From Azolla caroliniana (taxonomy: Eukaryota > Plantae > Polypodiophyta): 64,000 nt of DNA. The stretch spans positions 3,348,001-3,412,000 of the forward strand of contig JBHGNT010000011.1 of assembly GCA_043228905.1 (NCBI GenBank), given 5' to 3'. Of the stretch, positions 3,298 to 63,667 are shown piece by piece (position 1 is the first letter of the stretch; each line of letters opens with the position of its first letter). The notes beneath the pieces are model-generated. The model had not been told where the DNA came from and ran no database searches. It saw only the letters and a program-made list of their open reading frames with translations. A program made the translations under genes and the position numbers.

Positions 3298-4628
3298 CTC
3301 CCCCTCAAGCTCAACTTGAGGCTCTTCGGGATCTTTGGGCTCACAGCTCCGGTTCCTCCTGGCTTCACGCCTTGCTCGCACTCCTCGACCTGTTCGACTC
3401 CGCGCGCTTCGACCCTTTCGGTCGGCTTGTCTGCTTATGTGGCCCTTATCAACTCTTCTGTTGTTGCAGTGTTGACGCTTCTCCTGCTGCCTTTTCTTCC
3501 GCTTGGGCCTCGGTTGATTCAGCGTATCTAAACCAAACATCCGAACCGACTCGGCTACCTCCGATCGGTTTTCGCTCTCATCCAAGTTGGCTGCCTCCAA
3601 CTTGTCTTCGGTCTTCTCACCCTTGATGGTGTCATCTTCCCTAGGCGTGGTTGGCTTCGGCTTTCTCCTTCGGCTACTCCCCTTCTGTCCGCTTCCGGAC
3701 TTTTCCGCGGGTCCGCCCTCTCCTTCTTCAGCCGATCCGAAGTCGAACTCGACAACCGACTCGGTGTCGCGGTCTCCGCTCCTTTCCTGCTGCTTTGCTT
3801 GGTCTTTGGGGACTGTTCTCCCCCTCAAGTTTGGCACGTCGAGGTGACGCAATCCGAGCGCACCTGAGAATTGCCGCAACTTGTCCAGACCAAGAGGCTT
3901 GGTGAAGATGTCGACAGGCTGCCGATCCGTCGAAACGTACTGAAGTTTGACTTCACCGAAAAGGACACGCTCACGGACGAAATGGTAGTGCACCTCAATG
4001 TTCTTGGTCCGTGCGTGGAAAACAGGGTTTTTCGCGAGCTGGATGCTGCTAAGGTTGTCGCACTAGATCGTCGTCGGATCTGACACCTCCTCTTGCAGGT
4101 CCTTAAGTAGCCGCTTCAACCATATGGCTTCGCATGCCACGACAACCGCTCCTCGGTACTCAGCTTCGGTGCTCGACAGTGCAACTGTTGGCTGCTTCTT
4201 ACTGCTCCATGCGATCGCGGCACTCCCGAGGGAGAACGCGTATCCGGACGTGGATCGGCGATCGGCGGCGTTGCCAGCCCAATCAGCATCGGTGTAGCCG
4301 ACTAACTGCGCGGCTGCACCGGTCCGATATAGCAGTCCCCAGTCCTTAGTGCCGTTGACATACCGAAGTATGCGCTGCGCACACTGAAGGTGCTCCTCGG
4401 TAGGTCGCGCCATGAACTGACTGGTCACTCCGACCGGATAACTGAGGTCGGGTCGGGTGATGGTCAAGTATATGAGGCTTCCGACAATTTGTCGGAATCG
4501 AACCCATGACCTTAGGTTATATGGGTTGAGCTCTTGACCATTAGATCATCTATTGTAATACGTAGGATTATATCTTATTTTCATTTACATTTTATTATAG
4601 GAAATTAGTGTATATTCCAGATTTCTCT

Positions 4629-4648
4629 GGAACATTCTAGAAGCTTCA
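4629..4648 (+). promoter_or_regulatory. Heat-shock-element array in gypsy LTR U3 (repeated in the 3' LTR near 9886-9905)
   Basis: gGAAcaTTCtaGAAgcTTCa gives four perfect alternating nGAAn units about 20 bp upstream of the TATA box. Confidence 0.7.
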
Positions 4649-4923
4649 GGATTACTCCTGAAAACACTATAAAAGAGGGCACTAGGCATTATGTTGAACC
4701 AAATTGGTTCAACGCCAGTCTTAAGCCTTTTAGCCACCATTGTATATTCTCTTCATATAATACATATCTTTCTTATCATCACTCTCTCTCTCTCTCTCAA
4801 TCTCTCTCTTTCTCTCTGTCTCGCTCACTTCTTCCTTCTCTCGAAGAAGTTCCACACCTCTCATAGTACTAATCCTTCGTTTAGTACTAATTCCTTCTCT
4901 GTCTCAGTACTGTTCATGACAGC

Positions 4924-4935
4924 TTGAACCAATTT
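4924..4935 (+). promoter_or_regulatory. Self-priming-type PBS (no tRNA PBS)
   Basis: TTGAACCAATTT, 2 nt after the LTR end, is the exact reverse complement of AAATTGGTTCAA at 4701-4712, about 30 nt downstream of TATAAAA (4668). Confidence 0.75.
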
Positions 4936-4994
4936 TCCTACCTTCTGTCTCTCTCATTTCCTATTAATCTTTTATTCCTCTTTTCTTTCATCCC

Positions 4995-6156
4995 ATGGCC
5001 ACTGTTAGCGCTGAAGAATATCAATCTGTTTTCTCGGAATTTCAATGCTTGAAGGAGAAGTTCCATGCTTTGGAACAAGAAAACCAACGGTTGCTGGGGG
5101 GATCTTCAGCAAATCTCCTTAGAAAAGCAGCAAACGCAACAACAACATGGGGAACTTGCGTTACGCGTGCAACAACTCAAAGCAACCATCATAGCGATGC
5201 AACAACAAGGGCCCGGAACACAAGGGATTCATAAAGAACCCAAGATTGGCCTTCCCACGAAGTTCGATGGAACGCGATCGCAGTTTAGAGGGTTCCTTAA
5301 CCAGGTACGATTAGTTATTCAAATGCATCCTTCCCGATATCCCACTGATGCATCACGAGTGGGTTTAGTAGGCACTTTGTTAAGTGGCTCAACGTTGTCA
5401 TGGTTCGCTCCACTATTAGAAAAGGAATCTCCGTTACTCAACAATTTTGAAGAGTTTCTAGGTAAGTTTAAAGCATGTTTCGGAGATACTGACAGCATCA
5501 GGACCGCAATCAACAAAATCCGGCGATTACACCAAGGTGACCATCCAGCCTCCGCATACGCTGCAGATTTTCGCCTACTCACCGCCGATATCCCTTGGGA
5601 TGATCAAGCGTTGATGGAGCAATTCCGTTATGGTTTACGCAACGACGTCAAGGATTTACTATTGACCTTCCCCGAAGAGCCAAAGTCCTTAATAGAAGCA
5701 ATCAGTCGTGCGGTGAGATGTGACAACTGCCTCTTTGAGCGACGTTCGGAACAACAGCTACAGATGCCGAGGGCAAGATCAGAGCCCACCTACGCCTCAG
5801 TGGTAGCAAGACCTTTTCCGAGGGAGTCATATAATGCGCCTCTAGTGAATACTCCGACTCCGATGGAGATTGACACTACACATCGTCGAGGGCCATTATC
5901 CGAAGAAGAAAAGCAGCAACGCCATACAAATCGACTATGTCTTTACTGCGGTGGACCAGGACATATCGAAATAAATTGCCCCCATAGGCCAAGAAGACAG
6001 GTAAACCAAATAGTCGCTAGTTCTAATTGTACTAAATCCGAGCCTATTTCAGTAGGGATATCTGATAGTCCTAATAGTACTAATAGTACTAATATCCCAG
6101 ATCTAGCAAACAAATTTGATGTCCTTAGTCAGTTAGAAGAAGAGTTAAACGACTAA
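4995..6156 (+). CDS. Gypsy Gag (Ty3/PEG10-like capsid plus CCHC knuckle), apparent 1-nt frameshift in the G run at 5096-5101
   Basis: ATG at 4995 (MATVSAEEY...) switches frame into ORF 5065-6156, which has KFDGTRSQFRGFLNQ and CLYCGGPGHIEINC. Confidence 0.88.
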
Positions 6157-9100
6157 GTCCAGCAAAAATAGGAGCCGTTTGGTTGGACAACCCTAGATCT
6201 GTGCAGCCCATTAGTGGTTCCATTCCCTCTAAGCAAGTTAGTGATGTGTTCGTAGCCCAAGTAATAGTTAGTACTAAAAGTACCCCTCTAGTACATGTCC
6301 TAGCACTCCTAGATTCCAGAGCTAACTCTTGCTTTATGGATAAGAAATTTTCTCAAGCTCATAAGATATCCCTAAGAAAACTCCAGTGTCCAGCCTCTGT
6401 AGTAGTCATTGATGGACGTCCCATTGCTTCCGGAAATATCAGAGAAGAGTCAGAGCCCATTAATATTGTCCTAGATTACTTAGCATGTGTAATATCATTT
6501 AATATTATTAGTATCCCAGAACATCCTATAGTTTTAGGATTACCGTGGTTCGAGTTACATAACCCAGACATAGATTGGAGAACAAGAGAAATCCGGTGTC
6601 GACAAACCCAAGGGTCAACTCAGAAGATGGCAACCATTTCGCTATGTCAGTTGCGTAAAGAAGGGCGCAAGGAGGAAATGTTCCTCTTTGCAATATCAGT
6701 AAACCCCTCCAGCACCACTAAAGAAGAATCCACCGTTCAACTTCCCGAGAAGTATCATCATTACGCCGATGTGTTCGATAAAGTACAAGCCAACACACTT
6801 CCTCATCATCGACCGTACGATTGCCCCATCGATTTACAACCGGGAAAAGAGCCGCCATGGGGACTGATCTACAATTTGTCACCAACCGAGCTGGAAGTCC
6901 TTCGGGCCTATATAGATATATAGAGGAGAATTTGGAAAATGGTTTCATTCGGCATTCGAAATCTCCAGCCGGCGCGCCCATTTTCTTTGTCAAAAAAAAA
7001 GATGGATCGCTTCGTCTCCTTGTAGATTATTGTGGCTTGAATAAGGTTACAATCAGGAATAGGTATGCTCTTCCCCTTATCTCAAGTCTTTTAGAACGGA
7101 TCAATGGTGCCAGGTTCTTCACGAAGATCGACTTACGGGGAGCATATAACCTCGTACGGATCCGACCAGGAGACGAATGGAAGACCGCGTTTCGCACCAG
7201 ATATGGGCACTTCGAGTATACGGTCATGCCGTTCGGCCTCACTAATGTGCCGGCAGTCTTCCAACACATGGCTAATGATATATTCCGAAATCTATTGGAT
7301 GATTGTTTGATCATCTATTTGGATGATCTACTGGTTTATTCAAAGACCCCAGAAGAACATGATTCTCATGTACCATTAGTACTAAAACGACTTCGAGAAC
7401 ATGGTCTGTATGCAAAGCTGGAAAAATGTAGTTTCGGGTGCAACCAAGTGGAATTTCTCGGCTACATCATTTTGTCAGAAGGCATCTCCATGGACCCAAC
7501 TAAGGTCAAAACGGTGGTAGAATGGCAGACTCCGCGTTCAGTGTGGGATGTGCAATGCTTCTTAGGCTTTGCCAATTTTTACCGGAAGTTCATACAAGAT
7601 TACTCAAAGATCGTTCTACCTCTCACACAACTTACCAGGAAGGGACAACCGTTCATCTGGTCTGAAGAAACGAACATGGCTTTCGAGAGTCTTAAAAAGG
7701 CATTTACATCGGCTCTAATTCTAGCTCATGTCGATCCGGAAAAACCATTCATTATCGAAGCTGACGCATCGGATTTTGCATTGGGGAGCATTCTGTCACA
7801 ACAGGGGAATGATGAGAAGCTACATCCTATGGCTTTTCACTCACGCAAGTTTGACGCCGCCGAAATCAACTACGAAATTCATGATAAGGAGCTATTGGCA
7901 ATAGTGGATTCTTTTATGCAATGGAGGCATTTTCTGGAGGGATCCTCTCATCCAGTCACCGTATTTAGTGACCACAAGAATCTTGCCTACTTTCAGGATG
8001 CTCGTGTGTTGAATCGACGTCAAGCTCGGTGGACCCACTTCCTCACGCATTTCGACTTCAAAATTACATATCGTCCGGGGAGGCACCAAGGGAAGGCAGA
8101 TGCATTATCACGACGTTCGTATCTAGCACCCCGTCCCGGCGAGCCAGCTTTCGATAACCAAAAACAAGTCATCTTGGGACTGGCACGACTACAAGCAACA
8201 CAGATCTTTGACATGCCTATGGATTCCCACGTTATCGATACCATACGTGAAGACTTGAAGACAGATGCGTTCGCCCAAGCTATACTAGCACAAATTGATC
8301 CCTCTCGAGCGTCGTGTTCACAATCGCAACCACCAAGTACGGACTATCGGCAATTCAAATACCATGATGGATTACTCTTCTTTAAAGAACTTTTGTATGT
8401 TCCTAATGGTTCTTGCCGCCTTCGAGTAGTACAAAACTGTCATGACACATATACAACTGGGCATTTTGGTAGTACTAAAACATTACATTTAGTACAACGA
8501 ACATTCTGGTGGCCCTGTATGCGACAATTTGTTGAGGATTTTGTTCGGACTTGTGATACATGTTGCAGAGCGAAAATGCCAAGGCATCATCCATATGGTT
8601 TATTAGAACCATTACCAATTCCAAGCAAGCCGTGGCAATCCATTGCTCTAGACTTCATCACAGATCTTCCAGTCTCTAAGGGGTTCAATGCGATTCTAAC
8701 GGTGGTCGATCGATATACGAAGATGGCTCATTTCTTGCCATGTACTAAGGAGATCTCCAGTGAAGACACTGCCGAAATTGTCATGCGTGAAGTATGTCGG
8801 CATCATGGACTTCCCGATAGTATCATCAGCGACCGTGGACCCCAGTTCGTGTCAAAATTCTGGAAGCACCTTTTTAACATGCTCAAGGTCACTTGTAACC
8901 TCTCCTCCGGTTACCACCCACAAACCGACGGCCAAGCTGAACGAACAAATCAAACGTTGGAGCAGTATCTGCGGTGCTTTCTCAGCTATCATCAAGATGA
9001 TTGGGTAGATATTCTCCACTTTGCCGAATTTGCCTATAACAACTCTATCCACGCATCCACTAAAGTTACGCCATTTTATGCTTATACGGGATGTCAGCCC

Positions 9101-9748
9101 CGGTGGAGTGTACTTGAAACCCCAGAGGTGTCCACAAATCCGTGCGCGGAGGATCGTTTGGAGCAGTTACGCAAGATACAAGCGGATTTATCTACTCATC
9201 TCCAGCAAGCTCAACAAACACACAAGGTCTACGCGGATCGTCATCGACTTCCATCCAGTTTTAATATTGGAGATCGGGTGTGGCTGCTACGACAACACAT
9301 CAAGACTACTCGTCCATGTGAGAAGTTAGATTATCGGCGATTAGGTCCTTTCCGTATTATTGGACAGATTAATGATGTCGCTTTTCGTCTCGATCTACCT
9401 CCTCAACTTCGGATACATCCGGTGTTTCATAGTTCTCTCCTCGAACCCTACCATGAGAGCACCATCCCAGGACGTCTTATCCAACCTCCACCCCCGATCG
9501 AGCTTGAAGATGGGCCGGAGTACGAGGTTGCCGCCATCCTTGATTCCAAGATTGTTCGCAACAAGCTCTACTATCTAGTCAATTGGCTAGGCTATAGCCC
9601 CAACGAACGTACTTGGGAACTGATCGAGAATGTGACCAATGCTCGTGCTCTTCTTGAAGACTTCCATCGTCAATATCCACACAAACCAGGTCCTCAATCC
9701 AAGACGACTCGTGACACTCGTCGTTTTAAAGGGGGGATAGTGTCATGA
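6150..9748 (+). CDS. Gypsy Pol: protease (LDSR, degenerate DSG), RT, RNaseH, integrase, chromodomain; frameshifted at 6909-6924
   Basis: ORFs 6183-6923 and 6821-9748 with motifs KIDLRGAYNLVRI, YLDDLLVYS, DASDFALG, HDKELLAIV, SDRGPQF, HPQTDGQAER, GPF, HPVFHSSLL. Confidence 0.95.
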
Positions 9749-12700
9749 TATGGCAAGACTCGAACCCATGACCTTAGGTTATATGGGTTGAGCTCTTGAC
9801 CATTAGATCATCTATTGTAATACATAGGATATTATTTTCATTTACATTTTATTATAGGAAATTAGTGTATATTCCAGATTTCTCTGGAACATTCTAGAAG
9901 CTTCAGGATTACTCCTGAAAACACTATAAAAGAGGGCACTAGGCATTATGTTGAACCAAATTGGTTCAATGCCAGTCTTAAGCCTTTTAGCCACCATTGT
10001 ATATTCTCTTCATATAATACATATCTTTCTTATCATCACTCTCTCTCTCTCTCTCAATCTCTCTCTTTCTCTCTGTCTCGCTCACTTCTTCCTTCTCTCG
10101 AAGAAGTTCCACACCTCTCATAGTACTAATCCTTTGTTTAGTACTAATTCCTTCTCGGGACGAAGCTTAACGGTTCTGTCCAGAGGAGTCGAGACGGACT
10201 TACAGTCGGCCATCCCGAATTTAAAGAGCATACTCAACACGTAATGACGTTGGCTTATCAATATGCCTTCAGGGGTACGGATCACTTCGATCCCGAGGAA
10301 GTAATGAAGGTCCCCCAGATCCTTCATGTCGAACGATGCCGCAAGCTGGAGCTTCACGCGGTCGATTTCACCTAGGTCGGCGCCGGTGATGACCAAGTCA
10401 TCAACATATAGTAAAATACTAACCGGTCCGAGTCGACCTTTCTGGATGAACAGGGAAGAGTCCGATTTTGACGTGACGAAGCCCAACTGACGCAGTTGTT
10501 GCGTGATCTTCACGTTCCAGGCACGCGGGGCTTGCTTCAGTCCGTAAAGGGACTTCTTCAGTCGGCATACTGCCGAGGAGTTCGTTCCGGAGTGAAATCC
10601 GGGAGGCTGTACCATGTACACCTGTTCCTCAAGGTCACCTTGCAGGAACACATTCTTTACATCCATCTGATGTAAGTGCCACCCCTTCACCACAGCTACT
10701 GCGAGCAAAACACGGACGGTCGTCATTTTCGCGACCGGCGCAAATGTCTCATCATAGTCGATGCCGTGTTTCTGCGCGTAGCCCTTTGCCACTAGCCGAG
10801 CCTTGTACCGGTTGACTGAGCCATCAGTGTTGTACTTGACCTTGTACACCCACCTACACCCGATCGGTTTTACCCCCCTTGGTGCGTCAACCAGGTCCCA
10901 GGTCTCGTTCTCCGCCAATGCGTGCATCTCTTCCTCCATCGCGGCACGCCAATTCGCGTCTTTAGCCGCTTCTGCGTAGCTCTCCGGCTCACGCACTTCC
11001 GTTACATGGGTCATGTACGCATAATGATGCGCCATGTACTCGTTGTATCCAAACCGCAAAACAGGATTCTTCTGACCGGTAGATCGGCGTAATCTCACAT
11101 TAGCCGATGTCGAGGCCTTCTCGGTCGACGCGGACTTCACCTTTAAAGACCCGTCACTGGTTCCCTCGGAGTCGGACTCGCGTCGGTCTGACTCATTCCT
11201 ATTCACGGCAAAATCCGACACCTTCTTCTTCCCTTTCTCTTTGCGCGTAGGCCGTCTCCTCGGCTTCCTGCACGGGGAATGCACGGCCGAGTCTCCACTA
11301 CTCGCCAGCTCTTCATCGGACTAGTCGTACCGACTTAGTCGTCCAATCGATCCACTTAAACGGAGTGAAACCGGACTCTCTTTGCGGGTCTCGATTTCGG
11401 GCTCATCCGGAGGCATCTCGGCCTCGCTGACCTCATCGTCAGAGCTCGGATTGGAGTCGGGGTTCGGAGTCGGGGGCTGGTACCAAGACGCGGACTCGTC
11501 AAACACAACGTCGTGGCTAACACACGCTTGTTTGGTGCGAGGGTTATAGCACTTATAACCCTTCTACTCGTCCGAGTAACCGACCAAGATGCATTTCTCG
11601 GCCTTTGCGTCCAGCTTCCTCCTTTTCTCCTTTGGTACATGCACATACGCAATGCTACCGAACACCCTCAAGTGTCGCAAGTTCGGCTTCGTTCCGAAAT
11701 ATAGCTCGTGCGCCGACACTTTGTCTCCGATTCGGTTCTAGATGTATACCACGGTCCTTACCGCCTCGGCCCAGTAGAACTTGGGCAAGCTCTTCTCCTC
11801 CAGCATTGCCCGTGCCACTTCCACAACTGACCAATTCTTCCTCTCGGCCACGCCGTTCTGCTCCAACGTGTATCTACAATTGAATTCGCGCCGAATTCCC
11901 ATTTGTTGTAGATAACCGATGAATTGACCGGAAAAGTACTCTTTCCCGCCATCCGACCGCAGGCACTTGATCTTTCGTCCCATTTCCGTTTCCGCGAACC
12001 CTTTGAGGTCCCGGAAATAGTCGAAGACTTCGCTCTTCCTCTCAATGAGGTAGATCCACGTGTGCCGCGTGTGGTCGTCGATGAAGGAGACAAAATATCG
12101 GCTCCCGCCAAGACTAATGTTTTGTGCCGGCCCCCATACATCGGAGTGTATAAGGTCGAGCTTGTTCCGGCTCCGGTTTCGCTCGTTGGGGAAAGGAAGT
12201 CGGTGTTGCTTCCCGAGCTGGCAGGCTTCACAAATTTGTGCCTTTCGCCACTAAATTTGGGCAATCCGAACACTACCTGTTTCGATTGCAGATCTTGAAG
12301 CCGCTGGTAGTTGACGTGGCCTATCCGCTTGTGCCACAAGTCGATGCCCGACTCGGATTTTTGTCCCTTCGCGAACATTGTGGTGCCGTCGTCAGTGGAG
12401 TCGAGGATGAACATCCTCCCGTCTCTACGCCCCTGCGCAATCACACGACCTTCTTCCTCAATGAAGCACCCAAGGTGTGTAAACCGAACCTCCATCCCTT
12501 GGTCGACGATCTGTCCGACCGAGACTAACTTCTTCGTGATTGTCGGAACATGCAGCACGTTCATGAGTTTCCCTTTCTGCCCGACATGGCTAAGGGGAAC
12601 TTCTCCGACATTCGCGATCGGATGCAGAGTGTCGTCTCCAGTTGCGACTACTCCAGGTTGTATCGGTTTTTCAAGGTACGAGAACCACTCCTTATGGCTC

Positions 12701-14349: not shown

Positions 14350-15100
14350 TGTCACGGACATGACAACAGTTATGTCAAGATTTGAACTCTTGACCTCTTG
14401 TATTATAGTCAAGTGTTATATTATAACCAACACATCCAAGTACATAATCATGTTATGTATATCTTCATAGATTATCTATTCACGTTCTAGGAGTTTTTAG
14501 AAAGTTCTAGAACTAGAAGGTTCTAGAGGGTTCTAGAATATTCTCCAAAATATTCTCAAGAATATTCTAATGCATGTACTTCAACTCACAGTATAAATAC
14601 TTGTAACTTCCTTGGTCCCTTTCAAGGGATTCAAACTGTCACGGACACACCATGCACGAACTAGGACGGAGCACATATGATGGGGCTACGAGCGACAGAT
14701 GAACTTGGAGCTAGATGTGATGAGGCTAGAAAATCTAGATGTTGTGAGCGACATGAGGGCATGAAGACAGAAATAAAGATCAAGGAGACAAGATGAGGCG
14801 AAATGAGAATACTAGATTGATGTGTCAATGACTGGTGTTGAATCCCTTGAAAGGGACCAAGGAGGTTACAAGTATTTATATTGTGAGTTGAAGTACATGC
14901 ATTAGAATATTCTTGAGAATATTTTGGAGAATATTCTAGAACCCTCTACAACCTTCTAGTTCTAGAACTCTCTAAAAACTCCTAGAACGTGAATAGATAA
15001 TCTATGAAGATATACATAACAATTATGTACTTGGATGTGTTGGTTACAATATAACACTTGAGTATAATACAAGAGGTCAAGAGTTCAAATCTTGACTATA
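14350..15100. repeat. Two truncated copies of one LTR family in inverted orientation (about 260-bp inverted repeat)
   Basis: 14374-14634 is the reverse complement of 14838-15096. Both 14350 and 14637 start TGTCACGGACA. Related to the solo LTR at 41303-41751. Confidence 0.9.
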
Positions 15101-15104
15101 ATAT

Positions 15105-17607: not shown

Positions 17608-20321
17608 AAACATTAACCAAAGGATACCTCCATTGAGCTAGAGGGTTATAGGTTTGGAGGAAGGATATTCTTGGGCTTCTACAAAGTAGTAGAAGAAACT
17701 ACGACCAACAGAAGCATTAATGATGATATAGCCTGTGTATTGGGCGAAAGATATGGTGGGTTATCCAGGAAGGGAGGTGATGAGGTCTCCATCAAGTGCA
17801 CAAGAAACGAGTGAACAGAGAATAACCCACAAATTTGCTGCAGAAAACAAGATCGTTGCCCTTGTCGTCATTGTCCACAGAGATGGCCTCTATAGAGCTC
17901 TACCAGACAAATGAGAGGAGAGAGGAGCTTCTTCTATATAAATAATAGGAGAGGTTTTTTAAACTCTCTTCTTCGTCTTCTTCTTCTTTTCTAAAAACCT
18001 CATTTTATGGAGGTTTTCCATTATTTTCCAAATACCCCTCCCTATATACATTATACTTTTGTTACGGGCATGACCATTTAATATCCCGTGGTGAGAATTT
18101 ACCGTAGTATTCTATACACGTGGATAAGTGTGAGGGTTAAATGAGAGTGTAAAGAAGGGGAGGATTACTTTTAATTCTCGGGATTGAGAGAACCCATTAG
18201 GTCAAGTGTGAACTTGCTTGGGGGCCTTGGGTATCGCTATAAATAAGAGGCCTAGCTACCCTCATTTCATCATCTTTTGACTATATCGAGACTCTGCTCT
18301 TGTGGTGGGTCAACTCTTGTAGCGAGCGCGCCAGCACCAGGTACGACTCGACGCCACAGCGGTGGTATGGGACGTCGATCGAGGTTCGAGTCCGTCTCGA
18401 TCCCTTCGCTCGGGGGTGGTCGGGTGGATCGGCACCCTTTTTTCTCTTTCTCCTTTCTATCTATCATTTGTTTATCCTTATCTTAAGCTTACTTTAGTAC
18501 CTAGATCTCTAATATTTGGTATCAAATTTATGTACTAATGTTTCTTTGTTTTTCATTTGTCTTTTGATTGATGGTGATCGATCTATGTGCGGTCGGCCTT
18601 GATCCAGACAACGATCAACAAAGAACTTCGGTAACTCTTTCCGTAATTATTTTTTTTCTCTATTCTCTCTTTTCCCATCTAATCATGTGTTTAGTTTATA
18701 TGTCATTTTTTTCATTAAGTCAATGATGTTGTAGTGGTCTTTAATTGATTATCTAAAACGTTTACATATGTGCACGAGGTCAATACCTCATTTGACATAT
18801 AAATAATATGTGATGAGTGCCGTATGCGTACGAGGTTAATACCTCAATTACGTATTACGTTCACGAACATATGTTACGTTTGCATATGAGTTTAATACCT
18901 TGATTTGTTGTAAAGGATATGCGTAAGAGGTCAATACAATTGCGTATTACGATGATCTCTTATTTGTGGATGTTTCGTGTGCGTAGAGGTATATACCTCG
19001 ATTACGTATCTCGATCACATCATTTGTGGCTATTTAATATAACGATATGTTTAATATAGGCATATGTGGTCACATATATACGTATTTGATCGTATATATG
19101 TGATAAGTAAACATATGTGTATATTCATTATTACGTGATTATATCGAAAGTTGTCCTTGTCGGGAAAAGGATGTTGGTGGCCGTCCTCACATTTTTGTGA
19201 GAATGGCGTTGTCACCATCCCTTTTTCAACAATTTTTTATTGTTGACAACCCCGTTGATGACCTCGATTTCATTACGTAAAGAAAGGCCTATAGCCATAA
19301 TGATGTTGAGTACGTAGGGCTTGACCCACTTCAAGTGAGGTCGCTCCAATGACACACGTATCCAACATCCCTCCCTCGTTACATGGATATGATGCCACCA
19401 TGAGCTCGTTCTTACGAGAGGCATTCGTAATGACGTGACCATGTGATGGGCCACGTGAGCCTACTACGAAATGAGGGCTCATTTGGCTTGACCATTAGGT
19501 TGCACTTTGACGTATGCCATCATAATTACAAGACTTGAGGTTGGGTAACGTACCAACATAGTTTTGGTAAATGAGGGCGAAATAAGGACCCTTGACATAT
19601 ATGTTCTTTTAAAAAAAACACATATGATCAAATGCCTCGCATATCTCTTATACGCATCATTCAAACATTAAGCATTCAAGAAGAGCAACTTACTTGGTTG
19701 GCTCAAGTGTTTAATGTATTTGTTCTTGAGGTCTCGAGTTCAAATATGACCAAGACCATACAACATCCTTGATACATATGACTATAACACATGTTTAGAC
19801 TTAAGGTCTAAGTGCAGTTCGGGGTCCTCGTAATAGGACTTAAAGAGCCGAAACCACATATGTGGGCAAAGAAACATAGTTTATTGTTAACATTTTTTTT
19901 GTGTATAAACTACTCATGACACGAACATACATGGTTGAGCCTCGGGGAGCCGCCATGAAAAAATCGATATAGAGATCAGGGAAAGACATTAAATTGTCAC
20001 CCCCATGGTTTTTAAAACGCCTTTGTGTTACCATAGTCACCTGATTTTGAACCTCATCTCATACGTCTAGAGGGGTATTGACGTGAGATCATGATATCGA
20101 TTAATGTTTGCCCATGATATGTTTACATCACGACATGATGTTATGACTATTTCTCTGATTTTATCCTATTTCTTTTCCAGAAATAATCTTTAATGGCTCA
20201 AATTAACGACCCGATGTCATCCGCTCAAGCGGAAGGAACTCAAGGGAATCCTCCTGGACAAATGTCCACTGAGATGTATTTGGCACAAATAACCCAATAC
20301 CTTAGTTTCACCGCTCAATAG

Positions 20322-23300
20322 ATGACCGAACTTCATGTTTATAATATCGATAATGTCTCGGTTCAATTAACATATTTTGAACAACAACTTGATGAAATCT
20401 TAAATGATTTTCATGATGTTTTTCCAAGTGAACTACCTGATGGGTTACCTCCTAAACAAAATATAGACCATCGTATAGATATTGTACCTAGAGTTGCACC
20501 AATAAGTATACCTCCATATCGCTTAAGTCGATCCAAAGAAGATGAGGTATCTAAGCAACTCAAGGACTATTTACGAATGGGTTATATACGTTATAGTAAA
20601 TCTCCATGGGGTGCACCAGTTCTCTTGGTAAAAAAGAAAGAGGGCACATGGCGTATGTGTATTAATTACCGACTCTTGAATAAAGTGACGATCAAGAATT
20701 CGTACCCATTGCCCCGGGCTGACGATCTAATTGACCGTCTCCAGGGAGCTCGGTATTTTACGAAACTTGATCTCCGTACTGGCTATCATCAAATACGAAT
20801 AAGTGAGGACGATGTTCCCAAAATGGCATTTCGTACACGTTATGGCCATTATGAGTTTTTGGTTATGCCTTTTGGTTTGACCAATGCTCCGGCTACATTT
20901 CAACATGAAATGAATGACATTTTCCAAGAACAACTTGGGAAATTTGTCGTTATTTTCTTGGATGATATTTTAGTTTATAGTCGTACATTAAAAGAATATG
21001 CTAGACATGTTCGCTTTGTTTTACAAACATTGCGTGACAAACAGTTTTATGTGAAGATCTCAAAATGTGAGTTCTTCAAGAAATCAATTACTTATCTAGG
21101 ACATCTCATAACCGAACGAGGAGTTGAAATTGATCCTTCTCGCATTGAGAAAATCAAGCTTTGGCCCACTCTTCGGAATATTCGAGAAGTTCGATCATTC
21201 CTTGTTTTTGTCGGGTTTTTGCGAAAGTCTCTTCGTAATTACTCCCAATTGACGACGTCGTTTACTGATCTTTTAAAAGGTCAAACGCGTAAGTCTACAA
21301 AACCTATTGTGTGGAATGCTACACTAGACCTCGCCTTTAAGGAACTCAAGGACCTGGTTTGCAAGGCTCCTTCACTTCTTTTACCTGATCCTTCAAAACC
21401 TTTTGAGGTTGAAACCGATGCAAGCGATTATGTTATAGGTGTTGTCTTGTATCAAGATGGTAAACCAATAGCATTCGAGAGTAAGAAACTTGATTCTACT
21501 CAATGTCGGTACACCGTTCAAGAAAAGGAATTATTTGCAGTTATACATGCGCTCAAAACATGGCGCCATTATCTTTATGGAAATCGCTTTGTGGTAACTA
21601 CGGACCACAAGTCCTTGAAATATTTTTGTGACCAACAAGACCTGAAAGGTCGTAAGGCACAATGGGCTGATCTCATCCAGAACTTTGATTTTTCCATACG
21701 ATATCGTAAAGGTTCCATGAACACTGTCGCTGATGCACTAAGTCGCATCCGTGAAGTTAACATGCTTAGCTTCACTGAAATAACATCAGATCTTTATGAT
21801 CACCTTCGAGGAAAGTATCCTGATGACATTTATTTTGCAAAATACTCGGCAAGAGTTGAGTCTGGAACAGACACCACCACATCCTCGAAGGAATACTTCC
21901 ACATTGCTAACGGTTTGCTCTACCGTAATGGGAAGGTTTGTGTTCCAGATTTACCCGAGGTCAAAAAGAGGATTCTTTTTCAATGCCATGATGCACCCTC
22001 AACAGGGCACCCTGGAATACATCGTACACTCATTCTCATCTCCACTCAATTTTATTGGCCTAAGATGCGTCCTGACATACATAGCTATGTGACTAAATGT
22101 CACCAGTGTCAGCTTAACAAAGCCGAGCGACTTAAAGCCGCAGGACTTTTACATCCCTTGGACATTCCCAATAATAAGTGGGAAAGCATATCCATGGATT
22201 TTATTGTTAGCCTTCCTCGCACCCAAAAAGGCCATGATGCCATCTGGGTTGTCGTTGATCGACTAACTAAAATGGCCAGATTTATTGCTACTAAAACCAC
22301 GGTAACAGCTCCTGAATTGGCTTACCAATTTGTTGATAAATTGTTTCGTTTTTATGGGTTACCGATGGATATTGTGAGTGATCGAGATCCAAAGTTTACT
22401 AGTGACTTCTGGACGCAAGTCTTTAAGAAGTTAGAAACTACGTTGAGCATGAGCTCCACGGATCATCCTCAATCCGATGGACAGACAGAACGAGTAAATC
22501 AAATTATTGAGGACATGCTTCGAGCATACGTTGGTGCAAAACCAACAAAATGGGAACGTTATCTCCCAATTTTGGAGTTTGCTTATAACAGCTCCAAGCA
22601 TACGTTGTCGTAGTGTATTTTGTACACTACGTGAAAAACGTATATAGTATTAGATTCAATAAAAAATGAAGAAATAGAAGAAAATAGCAAAATAAATGGA
22701 ACATGTATAGGGCAAGATTCGAACCTTGCACCTCCATGTTAATAATGTAATGTCTTACCATTACACTAGCATTTCATTAGTGTTAAAGCATAGATGTCCC
22801 ACATAGAAAGGTAAATTCACGCTAGGATAAACATTAGAAAAACGCATAACAAAAGAAAAAGCTACACATACACATCTAGCGTGCATGATAAAAAACGCAC
22901 AAGTTAGAAAAAAGCATGATCACTTTAGATAAAGCATATAGTCTATCTATAGGAAAAGCATGGGGTCTATAGTTAGAGAAAAAGCATGGATTACTAAGAC
23001 TTCCTCATCACTACATAAGGATGGGGAGCACAATGTAATTGTGTGTGAAATATTTGGGAAATTGGATATATTTCCTAAAACACCAATTAACAAACTATAC
23101 TCGTGGGATTCACGAGATTTCTATATCTTTCTCTATCAATCTAAATACATATTCTTACATAAATATTAATCAATAAAATACATTATACTTGTGGGATTCA
23201 CAAGTTTCTAATAATCTACTCATAATTATAATAGTCTCAAATTCTTCCTCCTCCTAGTCCAAAACCTCGGCGGTTCCCACCCGACTCACGCAACGATCCG

Positions 23301-23982
23301 GAGCCGAAAGGCACGACAACGTCGACGGGATATGTTGATGTATGGTTTTCAGCCACGAGCCCCTATTGATGTTAATATACATCATGATGAGTTGCGAAGT
23401 ACGCAAAACTTTCTTCAGGATATGCAAGATATGTTGCATATTGCACGAGATAATATAAAAACAGCTCAAGATAGAGCGCGTTTTTATGCCGATCATCATA
23501 GGCAACCTCGTGTATTCAACCCTAGACAGAAGGTATTTTTACGTGTACCTCACAATTCTAAGACATTGTCTACGGGTAAGTGCGCTAAGTTAGCCCCACG
23601 GTTTTGTGGACCTTTTACAGTCCTCAAACGCATTGGGTCATCAGCCTATCGTCTCGCTCTTCCCGATGGTGTTGGAATTCATCCAGTCTTTCATGTGAGT
23701 CGTCTAAAAGAACTTCTAGGTTCTAGCGACAATACAGTTACAACTGAAACTCTGGTTACTTCTGAAGAATTATCTTCTAAACCACATGTACCAGAAAGAA
23801 TTCTCGATGTTAAAACAAAAAAATTACGTACTAAAGAAATCCGAGAATTTAAAATAAAATGGATGGATAAATCAATAAAAGATGCCACATGGGAACGTGA
23901 AAATACTCTCAGAACTAATTTCCCTAACTTTCCATTGCAAGAGTGCAATGTTTTAAAGAGGGGGAGTATGTTACAGGCATGA
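20322..23982 (+). pseudogene. Gypsy Pol (RT-RNaseH-INT-chromo-like), split by solo LTR 22606-23318
   Basis: ORF 20322-22613 ([34 protein letters not shown]) and ORF 23332-23982 (KLAPRFCGPF, HPVFHVSRLK, PERIL..KW...ATWE). Confidence 0.94.
22606..23318 (+). mobile_element. Solo LTR (713 bp) with 4-bp TSD, carrying an antisense tRNA-like module
   Basis: TGTCGT...ACGACA termini, ACGT on both sides; removing it restores SKHTSTG in the host integrase. Confidence 0.9.
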
Positions 23983-28830: not shown

Positions 28831-29027
28831 CCAATAATATGTGACAAGATCTTTATATGTAAATATGCATGTTTGCAAGTATATAGAGAGATAGATATAT
28901 TTGCAAGTATACCAAAAGTGGTTCAGACTGCCAATAATATGTCACAAGATCTTTATATGTAAATATGTATGTTTGCAAGTATATCGAGAGATAGATATAT
29001 TTGCAAGTATACCAAAAGTGGTTCAGA
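28831..29027. repeat. 100-bp tandem duplication (x2) in the DUF3527 intron
   Basis: CCAATAATATGT...GTGGTTCAGA starts at both 28831 and 28931. Confidence 0.9.
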
Positions 29028-29285
29028 ATCTGTAGAAACATGCATACAACATACAATGGGGAAAATGTGGTTGAACATGATTGGGAGCATGCAACAAATA
29101 ATGATTTGATTATACATTTGGGCATGTCTGTCTGTCTGAATGAATGTATGTATGTATATGTATGTAAGTCTGAATGAATGTATGCATATGAATGTATGTA
29201 GATGTATATCTGTCTGAATGAATGTATGTATATGTATGTATGTCTGAATGAATGTATGTGTCTGAATGAATGTCTGAATACATAC

Positions 29286-29288
<3 letters not shown>

Positions 29289-29318
<30 letters not shown>

Positions 29319-29904
29319 TGTATGTATGTATGTATGTATGTATGTATGTATGTATGTATGTATGTATGTATGTATGTATGTATGTATGTATGTATGTATG
29401 TATGTATGTATGTATGTATGTATGTATGTATGTATGTATGTATGTATGTATGTATGTATGTATGTATGTATGTATGTATGTATGTATGTATGTATGTATG
29501 TATGTATGTATGTATGTATGTATGTATGTATGTATGTATGTATGTATGTATGTATGTATGTATGTATGTATGTATGTATGTATGTATGTATGTATGTATG
29601 TATGTATGTATGTATGTATGTATGTATGTATGTATGTATGTATGTATGTATGTATGTATGTATGTATGTATGTATGTATGTATGTATGTATGTATGTATG
29701 TATGTATGTATGTATGTATGTATGTATGTATGTATGTATGTATGTATGTATGTATGTATGTATGTATGTATGTATGTATGTATGTATGTATGTATGTATG
29801 TATGTATGTATGTATGTATGTATGTATGTATGTATGTATGTATGTATGTATGTATGTATGTATGTATGTATGTATGTATGTATGTATGTATGTATGTATG
29901 TATG
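29289..29904. repeat. Perfect (TATG)n microsatellite, about 154 units, intronic, with degenerate flanks 29130-29980
   Basis: Directly visible. Source of the spurious YIHT and MYVC ORFs. Confidence 0.99.
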
Positions 29905-33912: not shown

Positions 33913-33974
33913 GGGTTTCACCAAGCTTTAGGGTTCGGGGATTTGTAGGGCTGATTATGGTTCTAGGGTTTAGG

Positions 33975-34993
33975 GTTTGCAAACTTGAACTGAACCAAAC
34001 CAAACTGATTTGGTAGGGCTCAAGACAAACCAAACCAAACCAAACCTGAACTGTAGGAATCAACAACAGTTCGTTTTGGCTTAATTGGTTTGTGCTTTGT
34101 CCAAGTCAAACTGGTTAAGCCTTATTCGGTTTAGAAGTTTGCATACTTGAGCTGAACCAAACCAAACCGATTTGGTAGGGCTCAAGACAAACCAAACTTA
34201 CCTCGAACTTGTTAAAAAGGAAGCTCAAGCTTGAACCAAACCGATCTATCAAACCATTTGAAAATAGTTTAATGGCTTGGTTCCCACTTGAGCCAAACCA
34301 TCGCCAACTCCTACGGTATAGTAGCATGTTTCAAAGCTTTTCATTGCAAATCCAAAAAGGAATGGTAAAGGTCTACTACGAATGAGCTCTCTACATTTAG
34401 GTGTGGAGATAGTCCTTTTAGGAGTTTGCAAACTTCAACTGAACCAAACCAAACTGATTTGGTAGGGCTCAAGACAAACATAACTTACCTCGAACCTGTT
34501 AAAAGGAAGCTCAAGCTTGAACCAAACCAAACTGTCAAACCATTTGAAAATAGTTTAATGGCTCGATTCCCGCTTGAACCAAACCATCGCCAACTCCTAC
34601 GGTATAGTAGCATGTTTCAAAGCTTTCCATTGCAAATCCAAAAAGGAATGGCAAAGGTCTACTACGAATGAGCTCTCTACATTTAGGTGTGAAGATAGTC
34701 CTTTTCGGAGTTTGCAAACATCAACTGAACCAAACCAAACTGATTTGGTGGGGCTCAAGACAAACAGATTTGACCTCAAACCTGTTAAAAAGGAAGCTCA
34801 AGCTTGAACCAAACCAAACTATCAAAACATTTAAAAATAGTTTAATGGCTCGGTTCCAGCTTGAGCCAAACCATCGCCAACTCCTACGGTATAGTAGCAT
34901 GTTTCAAAGCTTGCCATTGCAAATCGAGAAAGGAATGGCAAAGGTCTACTACAAATGAGCTCTCTACATTTAGGTGTGGAGCTAGTCCTTTTA
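33975..34993. repeat. Tandem repeat, about 287-bp unit x3 plus a partial upstream copy
   Basis: Units start GTTTGCA.AC at 34137, 34424 and 34710; partial copy at 33975-34050. Confidence 0.92.
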
Positions 34994-36143
34994 AGTTCTC
35001 ACCAATGTGCAAAGCAGACAATCTCAAGTACACTATAGTGCATGGGGTGGTGCCTAGATTTGAGTCTTTCCTTTACATGATGCTAGAGACCAAGCCTTTT
35101 TTGTTGTCTTACTTGTGGCTCCTTGGAACTCACAACAAAGCTAACAAGACAATTGCCTTGTTATCATATCATTGCAAATGTTGGGAAGCACCCCGAGTGT
35201 GTTCTGTGTGTGATTTGTGGTGCTCTTTAGCTTGTAAGTTCTAAACCATTGTGATTTTAGTGTACATCAAGGGTCCTTCATGGCTCATGTGTGTATTGTA
35301 TTGTATTGCCCCTTTAAACTCAAATTTCTATGATAACGCAAAACTTGTCGTACATTACTTTGGATAATAATAATTTGGCAAGCCAATGGTAGTTTTGAGT
35401 TGCCTAGTTCGAGAGGCCTCATGCAACCATCTCTATTTTTAGGCCGATGCTTTGACCCAATTTGGTGAGAGCTTTCTTTCACAAGTTTTTACATATTTCC
35501 ATTAATGACCCATTCCATGACATTCATTGCCCATGTCACATCCACGACATACCCATGACCACCTATACCAACTTCACTATTTCCCAAGAGATCTTTACAT
35601 ATCCATGATCTTGCCACAACCCTTTACACCCTTACTTTCTATATGTAATCGAGATTCTCGTAATCAATACAATTTTTTATATGAGATCCTTTACACATCC
35701 ATGGCATACCCACGAAAGTTATACCTTGGCATTCCATGCCTACCATTCAGTGAGTCTTTTGCATAGAGATTTGCATTTGAATCTATGGAACATATCATTC
35801 ACACAATTTCATCATATTGTCACTCGACAAGCCATTACCAATAATAACTCGTTATCCTATCATTACAAAAAGCTCAAACGTGGTGTTCCATTGACATAAA
35901 ACTTAAATTATTGGAATACCATGAACATAAAGCCATTATAATAAACGTAAGCCCCCACCCATCATTTCAAATTTCAATCTCATTAGTATTGGGCTTGTCA
36001 TTAACATCACAAAAGTTTATGTTCTATGAATGTCTACCTAGAAAGGAAGTTTCTACTTAGCATAATGACAAAGAAAGACCCCCTTCATCACCACGAAGAA
36101 GACGCAGAGATTGAAACCAGCCCCAACCGGTTATGCTCTATCA

Positions 36144-41302: not shown

Positions 41303-41751
41303 TGTCATGACACATTGACATCAAATATATAGTTAGTAAGGATTGAACCTGCAACCTCACATCAACGAGATGTCATGCTCAACCACTTTGACATGACCAT
41401 ACATTTGTATAAGATGGTGTAGTATTCTATAGTCTAGTGTACAATACATTTCAGAATAAGAATATTCTACTCGTTAGTATATTCTAGAGATATTGTACGA
41501 TATATTCTAGATGAGTATATTCTAGAGATATTCAATCTTGTAACTTGTATAAATACTTGTAACCTTCTTGGTCTCTTTCAAGGGATTCAACACCAGTCAT
41601 TGACACATCAATCTAGTATTCTCGTTTCATTCCATCTTGTCTCCTTCTTCATCTCTGTCTTCATTCTCTTTTGTCGTTCCTAGCTTCTTAAGTTCCTTGT
41701 AGCCTTGTCATCCGTGCTCCGTCCTAGTCTGTGCTTGGTGCGTCCATGACA
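41303..41751 (+). mobile_element. Solo LTR (449 bp) carrying an antisense tRNA-like module
   Basis: TGTCATG...CATGACA termini, TSD GTAAG, TATAAATA at about 41548. Same family as 14350-15100. Confidence 0.93.
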
Positions 41752-42900: not shown

Positions 42901-43682
42901 TGTCGTTTTCAACACGCGGTCAAGAGAAAACGATAGGGGTGTTTAGATACAACTAATAGTCAACACGCAAACAAGAGAAAAGATAGAGTTTTTAGTCAAA
43001 GCGAAATGGTGAGATATTTATTATTATAAAGAGAGAATGTTACAACTAGGTTAGAGAATTAAGAGAATGAATGATAATGTAGGCTAGAGGGCTCGAGGCT
43101 GGTGTTGAAGAGGAATGACTTGAAAATAGTGAGGGGCTTCAATTTATAGGAGTACGTGATGCAAGAGCAAGCAATGCCACATGTCATCCCTGCATGAGTT
43201 TCAGAATGTTTTATAATGTTGTATGCATACATCTCTTAATAATGACAAAAATTATTATCACATAATCTAAATGACCCAACGGGTAAGGTGTTATAAGATG
43301 AGTGCCAGGGTCAAGGGTTCACGCTTTGGCATGACCAGTATTTATGACATTATCCCCCTCTTAAAACGACAAGTGCTACAAGTCACCAGGGACGAAAGGC
43401 TAGTTTTGTCCGGATACTTGCGATGGAAGGCATCGACAAGGGCTTGAGTATTAGTAACATTGTCGACAAGCTCCCAAGTACGATTGTTGGGACCGTAGCC
43501 AAGCCAATCCACCAAGTAATATAGCTTACTATGGATGATCTTGGAATCAAGGATAGCTGCGACCTCATATTTTGGGCCATTAATGAGTTGAACGACCAAT
43601 GGAGGTGGCATAACACGATGTGGAATATTGCTAGTAGCACAAGGCTCGAGGAGTGAACAATGAAATATTGGGTGAAGACACA
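42901..43682 (-). mobile_element. 3' fragment of a chromovirus related to 4498-10156 (chromodomain, PPT, 3' LTR starting at 43349)
   Basis: LHPIFHCSLLEP...YEVAAILDSK...YYLVDWLGY...RFKRGIMS; LTR starts TGTCATAA; distal LTR end approximate. Confidence 0.88.
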
Positions 43683-60821: not shown

Positions 60822-63667
60822 TTAATCATTCAGTGACATATAGACATGGGGCCTTGAGAAGCGCTTGATAGCATTCTCAATGTCTTGAAGTTCAAGGTCC
60901 ATGTTAGCTCTTGTTTTGATTTGACTTGGTGTGTCCCACATCAATGGAAGAGCACGCAATTTCTTTTCTAAGAGAGCTTTATCTGTTTTGTAAAAATATA
61001 TTAAAGAACAAACAATTGGGAATGCTTAATAACTTAAAAGTAAGTCAGAAATAATATTAAGATTCGACTTGCAAGGATACTTGCTCGAAGAGTTTTCAGA
61101 ACTTCTTCCTTGTCGTCCTCAGTCATCTCAACATAACCAGGGGGTAATCGATGAGCTTTATCGTTCTGTAACCTGCACAAAATATAACTTCAAGTATATG
61201 GTATTGCATGGTTTTCTTCCAGTAACCATTTTATACAAGCTCATGCGAACCAGACTTGCTTTTCTTTCCCAATGGAGGAAATTGATCCAAAAACGTTAAT
61301 GTCTTAATGTGGCTCATAACCTTACAATTCACTACCTAAGAATTTCAAAGACCTTCATTGTCTTTAAGAGGCAATAATAAAACATGAGATTACAGAAATC
61401 AATTCATTTGTTCAAAATAAGCCGTATGTATTAAACAGTTGCTGCTAGCAGTGAGGATAGGCATCATCCAATATATTAAGTTGCTTTGAAATTTCTGTGC
61501 ACTGTAGAGTGTTCTATACATAGCTCTATCTAAGACATGCACAGCGTCGACAAAAAACGAACATGATTTTGTTTGAGTGATTGCGTTTCTTGAAATGCAA
61601 GAGATTACTAGACCTTTGACCTGTTTGAGTTGCCAGTGATAATATATCCTTGTGTACAAGGATCCTGATTATTGCTAATACTTTGGGCTTGATTTCTTTG
61701 TACTCGAAATGCAAGAGATTACTAGAACTTTGACAAGTTTGAGTTGCCAATGATGATATATCTTTGTGCACAAAGATCCTGATTATTGCTAATACTTTGG
61801 GCTTGATTTCTTTGTACTCGAAATGCAAGAGATTACTAGACCTTTGACAAGTTTGAGTTGCCAGTGGTGATATATCTTTGTGCATAAGGATCCTGATTAT
61901 TGCTAATACTTTGGGCTTGATTTCTTTTTACCTAACAAACACATAGTCAGGCAGTCTATATACCCACTTTCCTTTGATGGCATATGCGACTAGCTCTAAA
62001 CTCCCTCAGCATGCCCAAGGCAAAGAGGTGTAGATCAATAGAGCAAGATGAAAAGAACTAAAATGTTACATTCATAATGAGTGTGTGAGACAGACAAATA
62101 CAGAGCCCAGACAGTTGTAGCTCAATTGGTAAGGTTGTTCTGTGGAGATCAGAAATTCATGTGTTCAAACCTTACATTATGCGTTAGCATCTCGTAGTAA
62201 ACTAGTTCAGATAATGAGATTTGAACCTGGGTGCATGGTTAGTAAAAACAATTGGCTTGCAACTAAGGTATAGTCCTCAGAGAGAGAGAAAGACTTACTT
62301 TTGTTCCACTGCATGAGCAAGCTCAATTTTTCTTTTGATTAGGCTGTAAAGGGAAAATTTAGACATTTAATATCTTCAAAATTTGATTCCAAAGTGTATA
62401 AAAGCAACACTTCCTGAGATTATTATTATTCTTACTATGATGGTATCTTTCCTAAATTCTCCTTGTATTTATCACCACCGGTTTCGGGTTCCTTAGCACG
62501 GCGTGCAGCAGCAGCTGCTTGAGCAACCTCTTTCATATTTTTTGCTACGAAATCAACGGCATGTTCCTTGGGTGGTCTGACAGCATGCTGAGTCTGGAAT
62601 GAATTTGAGATCAGCTTGAAGGAATCGGTTGCATTCTCTATAGGAATAAAGGGAAAAAGAACCCCAAATGAATGTATATAACGTTTCGGATTCCCTTAAG
62701 TGCGATTTTAAGCTCAAGGGACACTATTAAGAGTAAAATAAATAACTTATTATAGGTATACCTCATATTTTGGTTTGACTTGTTTAATTATTGGTTCTGG
62801 TGCACTACTGATAGCAACCTGATTACATCAAATTAGTATTGAGAAAACTTGCAACTACAATAATTATTCCCATTGTCACACATAAATAGGAAGGATGAAT
62901 CTAACTGCTTTCTTTGTCATGTATTCGTTTCTTTTTAGTCTTTGATACAAGACTAATTATTTTCTACCTATTGTAGTATTTATTAAGATGAGGGAGAATC
63001 TAACTACTTGTTTCATGGCGTGATTTAAAGCACTCTTTTTAGAAATTGCAGCTCTGTTGTCCTTGAAATGGTTACGTGGTCTGATCCCTTTTCGGATCAT
63101 TATTTCTCTGCAAAGATTGAAAGTAGATTACCTTCACTAAACGTGTGATTCAATCCAATTAAGCACTCAATACATTTATCTTCCATCATTAACAGACCGC
63201 ATGTCTATCATATTACCATCCATTCTATTCAAAAAGCCATAAAGATCCATTCCAACTTTATAACTCAATTTGTATAAGTTTGAAGTTAATTTAGTGTATT
63301 TATTAACCACATCAGCAGTGTACAATCAGTAATTTCCAAATTCAGAAGGGGTTATCTTCTTATACTCCTGGTTAAACGGTGATAGTCCCCGTGGTTCAAT
63401 TTCCATAAACCACTAGGAAGAAAAGCAAAGAAAAAATTTCCATAAATCTGAAAACTTTAACGAAAAAAAGATCCTCTTAGGCTGCATGTATGAGAGTAAT
63501 AAACTTTTAACTGATATACACTGGAATGCTAATTTCTTCTTTAAACAGATTTACCTGATCCCAGGTGGTGGACATAGCAATTCACAGATTTGAGAGCTGT
63601 CAATGTGGCTTGGTAGAGGACCCCATCTACATTTGAATCTCGGCAACGCTGTTGCTTCATCCGTATT
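60822..63667 (-). CDS. Enkurin-domain (ENKD1/enkurin-like) ciliary protein, multi-exon, 5' end not located
   Basis: Exons 63667-63555, 63107-~63008 (IRKGIRPRNHFKDN), an uncertain short exon near 62818-62762, 62637-62436 (DFVAKN...LGKIPSY), 62343-62299 (LIKRKIE), 61172-61081 (PPGYVEMTEDDKEEVLKTL), 60982-60822 (LPLMWDTPSQIK...IENAIKRFSRPHVY). Confidence 0.85.
61592..61927. repeat. 114-bp tandem repeat x3, intronic
   Basis: GAAATGCAAGAGATTACTAGA starts at 61592, 61706 and 61820. Confidence 0.95.
62110..62275. other. Two degenerate tRNA-derived (SINE-head-like) sequences in convergent orientation
   Basis: Plus copy: A-box TAGCTCAATTGGT at 62118-62130 and B-box-like GTGTTCAAACC at 62161-62171. 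Minus copy: GGTTCAAATCT (plus-strand 62217-62227) with a weak A box. Confidence 0.5.

Follow-up and report, generated by a model that had tools for sequence, protein, structure and literature searches.

The window analysed here is a stretch of 64,000 nt of the Azolla caroliniana genome (523 Mb assembly; contig JBHGNT010000011.1, positions 3,348,001-3,412,000, forward strand). It contains element A, a Tcn1-like chromovirus whose long terminal repeats (LTRs) carry, on the strand opposite to that of the element, a tRNA-derived pair of A and B boxes at tRNA spacing. We call such a pair inside an LTR a unit. An earlier note on this DNA had recognised the antisense box pair at the start of the 3' LTR; it is indeed there, as part of a longer unit (Table 1). 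The note had also reported a copy at 4498-4550 in the 5' LTR, which exists and is clipped inside its B box. The direction of element A is certain because its polypurine tract (PPT), its open reading frames (ORFs) and a 12-nt self-priming site fix it independently of the TATA box. Its pol region (reverse transcriptase, RT; RNase H, RH; integrase, IN) is split over two frames in the window copy and ends in a C-terminal chromodomain (PF00385, E 1e-12), and its two LTRs differ by 4 substitutions over 397 columns. The element (4495-10156) is nested in a copia element, lacks a target site duplication (TSD) and is clipped at either end, and at its left junction the flanking letters happen to recreate a perfect B box. 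TSDs of 5 bp were found in three other Tcn1-like elements (L140, L299 and L301), and self-priming matches of 12, 12 and 11 nt in three of four elements tested. Family 0 includes one copy with both LTRs and pol, with pol frames near 1199 aa.

Table 1 Features of element A and of the other LTR-borne units, with related repeats, in the window (positions are those of the window; SINE, short interspersed element).
Feature	Position	Strand	Remarks
5' LTR of element A	4495..4922	+	left end clipped within B box near 4495-4498; antisense unit about 4494-4555
Self-priming site, element A	4924..4935	+	12-nt match, complementary to LTR bases 4701-4712, ~33 nt past TATA
Coding span, element A	5053..9748	+	gag 5053-6156; intervening frame 6129-6923; RT-RH-IN-SH3-chromodomain 6782-9748
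PPT, element A	9728..9740	+	precedes 3' LTR
3' LTR of element A	9741..10156	+	right end clipped; TATA 9925-9930
Unit in 3' LTR of element A	9745..9817	-	A box 9800-9810, B box 9756-9766; T8-G52 spacing 44 nt
Heat-shock-element-like array, 3' LTR of element A	9887-9904		between unit and TATA
Unit in truncated LTR starting 14350	14367..14445	-	spacing 50 nt
Unit in inverted copy of 14350 LTR	15025..15103	+	
LTR of chromovirus B, control family without unit	18060..18527	+	partner LTR at 23969
Unit in Phygy-like solo LTR	22704..22775	-	LTR 22606-23318, 4-bp TSD, inserted in chromovirus B; score 26.4, 0/60 shuffles
Unit in solo LTR 41303-41752	41328..41400	-	5-bp TSD; family includes short non-coding elements
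Unit in minus-strand chromovirus 3' LTR starting 43349	43265..43337	+	B box damaged here, intact in sister copies
Decayed SINE-like repeat copy	62102..62285	+	head matches unit of two LTR families

Orientation and box conservation of the LTR units

Units were scored with A- and B-box matrices built from 21 groups of host tRNA genes, some of them organellar, and were taken as positive when at most 3 of 60 shuffles reached their score; that of the element A 3' LTR (22.6) was reached by none of 60. The LTR sample was chosen blind to the motif, as the 3' LTR starts lying downstream of chromodomains in the window and in 100 stretches of 10 kb (1.064 Mb). Among the Tcn1-like 3' LTRs anchored in this way, all 17 had the antisense unit and none of the 17 a sense one, which bears out the orientation bias at the left LTR edge that the earlier note had proposed. 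Adding 30 further chromodomain loci brought these counts to 43/47 antisense and 0/47 sense. Scanning the whole 1.064 Mb yielded 87 units, against 20 in shuffles, and 35 of the 38 units assignable to LTR families were antisense. The equivalent modules reported in the window for the LTR at 14350 and its inverted copy and for those at 22606, 41303 and 43349 (minus strand) are all present. Their scores, together with that of 9741, fall into two groups when compared with shuffled LTRs: the units of 9741, 22606 and 41303 outscore 60 of 60 shuffles, while those of 14350 and 43349 are weaker, with 2/60 shuffles matching them.

Across 17 family-level units, T8, G18, G19, G53, T54, T55 and C56 were kept in all 17, and A58 and C61 in 16. 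The variable-loop base G46, which lies outside the search matrix, was also kept in 17/17; conservation was 0.79 for the variable loop overall and averaged 0.44 in the anticodon arm. The spacing of the boxes was 43-44 nt in 13 of 19 parsed copies. Watson-Crick pairs in the stems numbered 43/119, 23/56, 22/70 and 23/68, slightly above permutation (p 0.006-0.08) and far from tRNA. ARAGORN called no tRNA anywhere in the window, and the sole match of Rfam RF00005 over the window (14368-14436, 25.4 bits) fell below the 29-bit cut-off. With its cloverleaf stems not kept and neither program calling it, the unit is not a functional tRNA gene, and the view of the earlier note that boxes are better preserved than stems, as befits a promoter or binding role, agrees with these counts.

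In individual copies of the CpG-type families, C56 was lost in 7/65 and G57 in 2/65. C56 was lost in no family majority (one two-copy family was tied), and position 57 varied only between G and A, which is what B boxes allow. For family A, four runs with four organism labels had no variant reaching 10% in 9741-9774 or 9800-9803, versus 12 of 50 positions in the adjacent U3. Transitions in inserted copies occurred at equal rates in the boxes and in other U3 sequence (15/163 vs 41/376 in CG, 6/42 vs 61/547 in CHG and 48/1484 vs 259/7880 in CHH contexts). Therefore, the conservation of the boxes between families does not come from slower mutation, and the same equality argues against methylation protection of ordinary inserted copies. 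The pattern points to selection in replicating lineages.

The flanks upstream of the units are AT-rich (0.64-0.88), like those of host nuclear tRNA genes, and a run of four T (T4) occurs within 33 nt in 5/6 Phygy-like units. Published work is cited here and below from the accessible sections of each paper; plant tRNA genes are described there as having AT-rich flanks, CAA motifs and T-runs, and as being silenced when methylated (PMC7544208). In Tcn1-like families, the distance from the tRNA +1 position to the TATA box is 107-166 bp, and the LTR end mostly lies 5-36 nt past the B box. Between unit and TATA box, many Tcn1-like LTRs have alternating nGAAn arrays (in element A, at 14484-14560 and in families 1, 4, 5, 6, 8 and 11), which we take to be heat-shock-element-like. 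A study of transposable element expression in moss describes RLG2 as heat-induced, and the word tRNA is absent from its accessible sections (PMC7466625).

Distribution across families, lineages and genomes

Elements were assigned as Tcn1-like or Phygy-like by their marks (chromodomain, primer binding site (PBS) and TSD). The 47 anchored Tcn1-like copies represent nine families, eight of which have the unit; all nine copies of family 9 score at 2/60 shuffles or better. No B box occurs in a second chromovirus type, represented by 9 copies of 2 families, and the two of these nine copies that pass do so on an A-box-like match alone. None of eight copia LTR pairs reached the threshold (best 4/60 shuffles).

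The unit also occurs in a lineage of another kind. The LTR at 22606, of 713 bp, is not a chromovirus LTR and belongs to a lineage with tRNA-Trp priming and 4-bp TSDs; the PBS of its family, which includes gag-only elements of 3.5 kb, matches a host tRNA-Trp gene. The marks of Phygy (tRNA-Trp PBS, 4-bp NCGN TSD, no chromodomain) were found in this LTR and at loci L081 and L297, with no chromodomain match in L081. All four PPT-anchored Phygy-like elements of the sample had the antisense unit, its B box lying 65-276 bp inside the left LTR end; one of these units, at the edge of the 300-nt scoring window, was detected only by a longer scan. In one coding Phygy-like family, U3 contains two antisense units, and a sense unit follows 75 nt past the TATA box. 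In the Phygy-like LTR at L081:6244-7115, tRNA-like units lie on either side of the TATA box and every one of them points away from it. The family of the 22606 LTR inserts at ACGT-like sites, often within other LTRs. The left 300 bp of this solo LTR (22606-23318) are identical to many very young copies and its whole length is about 92% identical over the alignment; it is likely a recombinant LTR.

Beyond the host assembly, the three closest metagenome elements (59-74% pol identity) have the unit, with scores reached by 0, 0 and 4 of 200 shuffles, and it is absent from L194, L195 and L197 and from more distant, probably fungal, elements. For distant relatives, an LTR start could be scored at 29 of 79 metagenome loci, of which 2 antisense and 1 sense passed at 5/100 shuffles, about what chance would give; a viral collection gave 3 distant loci. 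Family A and its unit were found in runs carrying four organism labels from three studies, the best-matching run being possibly the window's own source. The runs consist of contigs without strand information, and those labelled as RNA gave 2 and 4 pieces. In a tree of RT-RH-IN (33 rows, rooted on the second chromovirus type), unit carriers formed two clades, each with unit-less sisters, with supports of 98-100. This tree leaves out 12 rows of a first one, in which the Phygy-like outgroup and nested neighbours caused distortion; two short rows are represented by their 3' parts alone. It suggests either two gains of the unit by Tcn1-like elements or one gain and three losses. Counting the Phygy-like lineage, there were two or more origins, probably three, and exchange of U3 by recombination may also have produced this distribution.

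A possible source of the unit is a repeat of ~235 bp (L327-L342), which we read as a SINE. It lies in (GA)n tracts, has variable A-rich tails and no internal T4 (14/14 parsed copies), and carries a second, opposed tRNA-like unit. Its head, and no other part of it, aligns over 74-76 nt with the unit of families 3 and 5. A first look gave 2885 candidate copies, and the sequence behind the head faintly resembles the left end of the LTR. This homology is indirect evidence that such sequences work as Pol III (RNA polymerase III) promoters in the host, and a SINE may have donated the unit to an LTR or may itself have arisen from an outward LTR transcript. The second unit of the repeat showed no similarity to Phygy-like LTRs above shuffles, and no parent tRNA stood out when 14 types of host tRNA were compared, a set that is incomplete and in part organellar. 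The earlier note had allowed that the modules might be independent SINE insertions. This holds by half: one unit does share its sequence with a SINE-like head, but the units lack a separate tail and TSD and are passed on as part of the LTR.

Possible role of the unit

The unit has the A and B boxes of a type 2 Pol III promoter, at a workable spacing. It cannot make genomic RNA because it lies on the strand opposite to the PBS, the ORFs and the PPT. The interpretation that we favour, to which we give an even chance, is that selection keeps the unit as a predicted binding site for TFIIIC, facing outward and aiding the neighbouring Pol II promoter; on this interpretation, it is helpful to the element and not essential. 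Units would have been captured from tRNA genes or tRNA-headed SINEs more than once. TFIIIC would bind the boxes at the left LTR edge and place TFIIIB on the AT-rich stretch inside U3, where it would sit back to back with the heat-shock-like array and the TATA box. This stretch would thus be kept open in the few copies that replicate and, since the unit faces out, any Pol III transcript would lead away from where Pol II starts. TFIIIC is known to bind boxes spaced 30-60 bp apart, to load TFIIIB upstream, to act also without Pol III (as at ETC, or extra-TFIIIC, sites) and to relieve nucleosome repression (PMC11346459). A more far-reaching version appears possible to us, though rather doubtful: two unrelated autonomous lineages would have repeatedly captured tRNA promoters, would use TFIIIC/TFIIIB of the host as a portable outward element that activates or insulates their Pol II promoter, and would swap units with a SINE, and their insertions would plant thousands of Pol III sites per genome and give plants a tDNA-type (tRNA-gene-type) boundary.

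Several observations weigh against a selected TFIIIC site. Family 10, a Tcn1-like family, retains only a relic with decayed boxes (0/10 copies significant), yet has at least 40 copies, and three close relatives from other genomes have no unit. The sense unit past the TATA box in the coding Phygy-like family is kept in 16/16 copies, and the strand bias, resting on about three independent gains, carries little statistical weight. Conservation at the matrix positions is partly circular. In family A, the contrast between boxes and flanks taken alone reaches only p about 0.06, and the invariant stretch overlaps a long hairpin and the integrase end, so that box and hairpin are inseparable there. Inserted copies bear no mutational footprint of methylation protection. 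The CAA leader motif is present in only 8/18 units, 11/12 Tcn1-like units have no T4 inside the LTR, and the spacing between unit and TATA box may merely reflect the ancestral length of U3 (about 100-177 in unit-less LTRs). A review of 2022 knows of no barrier of yeast or animal type demonstrated in plants (PMC9540200).

These points leave some room for a neutral relic, namely that pieces of tRNA or SINE are tolerated only beside the LTR end and only in antisense, and hitch-hike without function. The homology with the SINE-like head, the position of the unit appended to the left of a U3 of ordinary length, its decay in family 10 and absence from close relatives, and the residual cloverleaf pairing, itself a relic, all fit this explanation. 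However, the boxes and their 43-44 nt spacing persist while the sequence between them has dropped to 55-65% overall identity between families, C56 is lost in single copies and not in family majorities, and the unit has been gained repeatedly and duplicated in tandem in one family. We regard a neutral relic as unlikely.

It is also improbable, in our estimate, that the unit is a barrier to heterochromatin or methylation, with TFIIIC at the LTR edge stopping silencing that spreads from the insertion site. Its edge position, the tDNA and SINE barriers of yeast and mouse (PMC9540200; PMC8136502, where the bound factor is CTCF) and the family with units on both sides of the TATA box speak for a barrier. 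Nevertheless, neither at nor inside the unit is C-to-T decay lower, and plant tDNA clusters whose boxes are intact are silenced all the same when methylated (PMC7544208). The earlier note had imagined a shield suiting chromodomain elements that insert into heterochromatin. This idea fared badly: the boxes decay from C to T like the rest of U3, there is no link to the chromodomain, as the Phygy-like lineage without one has the unit and the second chromovirus type lacks it, and family 10 multiplied with decayed boxes.

A third alternative is that selection acts on a hairpin and not on a promoter; the hairpin, of RNA or single-strand DNA, would lie close to the genomic RNA's 3' end or to the cDNA end. 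Family A can form a long rod in which the B box pairs with a stretch past the A box (z -4 to -5.7) and whose stem contains the invariant positions, and for families 3 and 5 the z of folding is about -3; families 4, 6, 8, 9, 11 and 14 have no excess folding (z above -1), and a shifted T-arm register does not exceed permutation (p 0.14). We consider this alternative very improbable, and rejected a rod conserved across families, since six of them do not fold.

Least probable of all is a role through RNA pairing, in which the anti-tRNA stretch of the 3' U3 would bind host tRNAs, as reportedly proposed for the U3-R of HIV-1 and for the bipartite primer site of Ty3, or the outward transcript would be a regulatory antisense RNA. 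A tRNA-Lys3-like sequence was reportedly described in the U3-R region of HIV-1 by Piekna-Przybylska in 2010. That case is similar in having tRNA-related sequence in the U3 of an autonomous LTR element and the strand logic is the same; moreover, tRNAs of every kind could pair with the complements of the D and T loops. The HIV-1 sequence, however, matches the primer tRNA, whereas the units here do not and most of their carriers use no tRNA primer. Tcn1-like elements self-prime, Phygy-like units match their primer tRNA-Trp at 0.38-0.47 when unrelated tRNAs among themselves have a median of 0.47, and the distance from the 3' LTR to the first antisense T4 behind it ranges from 36 to 1050 nt. We accordingly discarded a primer role of the unit and a conserved long antisense read-through. 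A function as landing pad for other elements was also rejected, as only 1/177 host flanks of LTR ends (11 families) had a unit within 300 bp.

Relation to known systems and other features of the window

The closest published counterparts are Helenus/TRIMp3, which likewise bear tRNA-derived A and B boxes in their LTRs, and Cassandra, whose LTRs carry a 5S-derived Pol III promoter. Helenus/TRIMp3 elements are non-coding, 311-1263 bp long and of several origins, with conserved boxes and a lost cloverleaf, and their proposed origin is the insertion of a SINE into an LTR (Kojima 2024, PMC10886601). The same paper expects that autonomous partners are transcribed by Pol II and have LTRs of another kind, and mentions that 'not a few' LTRs in Repbase resemble tRNA, only short ones being analysed. 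In contrast to the short, non-coding Helenus, the carriers described here are coding elements of 5-7 kb with TATA promoters. The Helenus promoter is argued to transcribe the element, from which we read a sense orientation, whereas here the boxes lie in U3 and face out. The chromovirus carriers resemble Tcn1 in their chromodomain, self-priming and 5-bp TSD (Neumann 2019, PMC6317226; Novikova 2010, PMC2864245), and the others resemble Phygy in their tRNA-Trp PBS and 4-bp NCGN TSD (PMC6317226). For published Tcn1 LTRs, the accessible sections describe TATA and CAAT boxes and no tRNA-like unit (PMC6317226, PMC2864245). In tDNA and ETC sites and in B2 SINE boundaries, A/B-box DNA also acts through bound factors and not through a tRNA product (PMC11346459; PMC8136502); these were shown in yeast and mammals, while here the unit is built into a retrotransposon promoter and has no barrier footprint. 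The tRNA copies found at a PBS (PMC3286476) are a different phenomenon from a unit in U3. The full-text literature, as far as searched, does not describe a unit of this kind for LTRs of autonomous plant elements, with Repbase notes, subscription papers and two supplements of PMC6317226 outside its reach.

Pol III promoters in LTRs have so far been described for tiny non-coding elements that need them for transcription, so that a conserved outward unit calls for another explanation when its carriers are coding elements equipped with a Pol II promoter. If TFIIIC binds these units, abundant retrotransposons would scatter potential Pol III or boundary sites by the thousands, and a short piece of LTR could serve to test tDNA-type chromatin organisation in plants, a question left open by the 2022 review. 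The units also inflate tRNA-pseudogene calls.

Among the remaining features of the window, 14350-15103 is a fold-back structure in which the truncated LTR is directly followed by its own inverted copy. The control LTR of chromovirus B (18060-18527) has an antisense A-box-like match without a B box; a sense B-box look-alike at 18383 was rejected, having no A box and being altered in the partner LTR. A long (TATG)n array and tandem repeats of 286 and 114 bp occupy 28850-30000, 33960-35070 and 61589-61931, and the Rfam microRNA matches in these repeats were dismissed as artefacts of simple repeat. At C5, C8 and C16 of G000 (L031, L048 and L049), nuclear tRNA genes (Lys, Ile, Arg and Trp) form tandem clusters.

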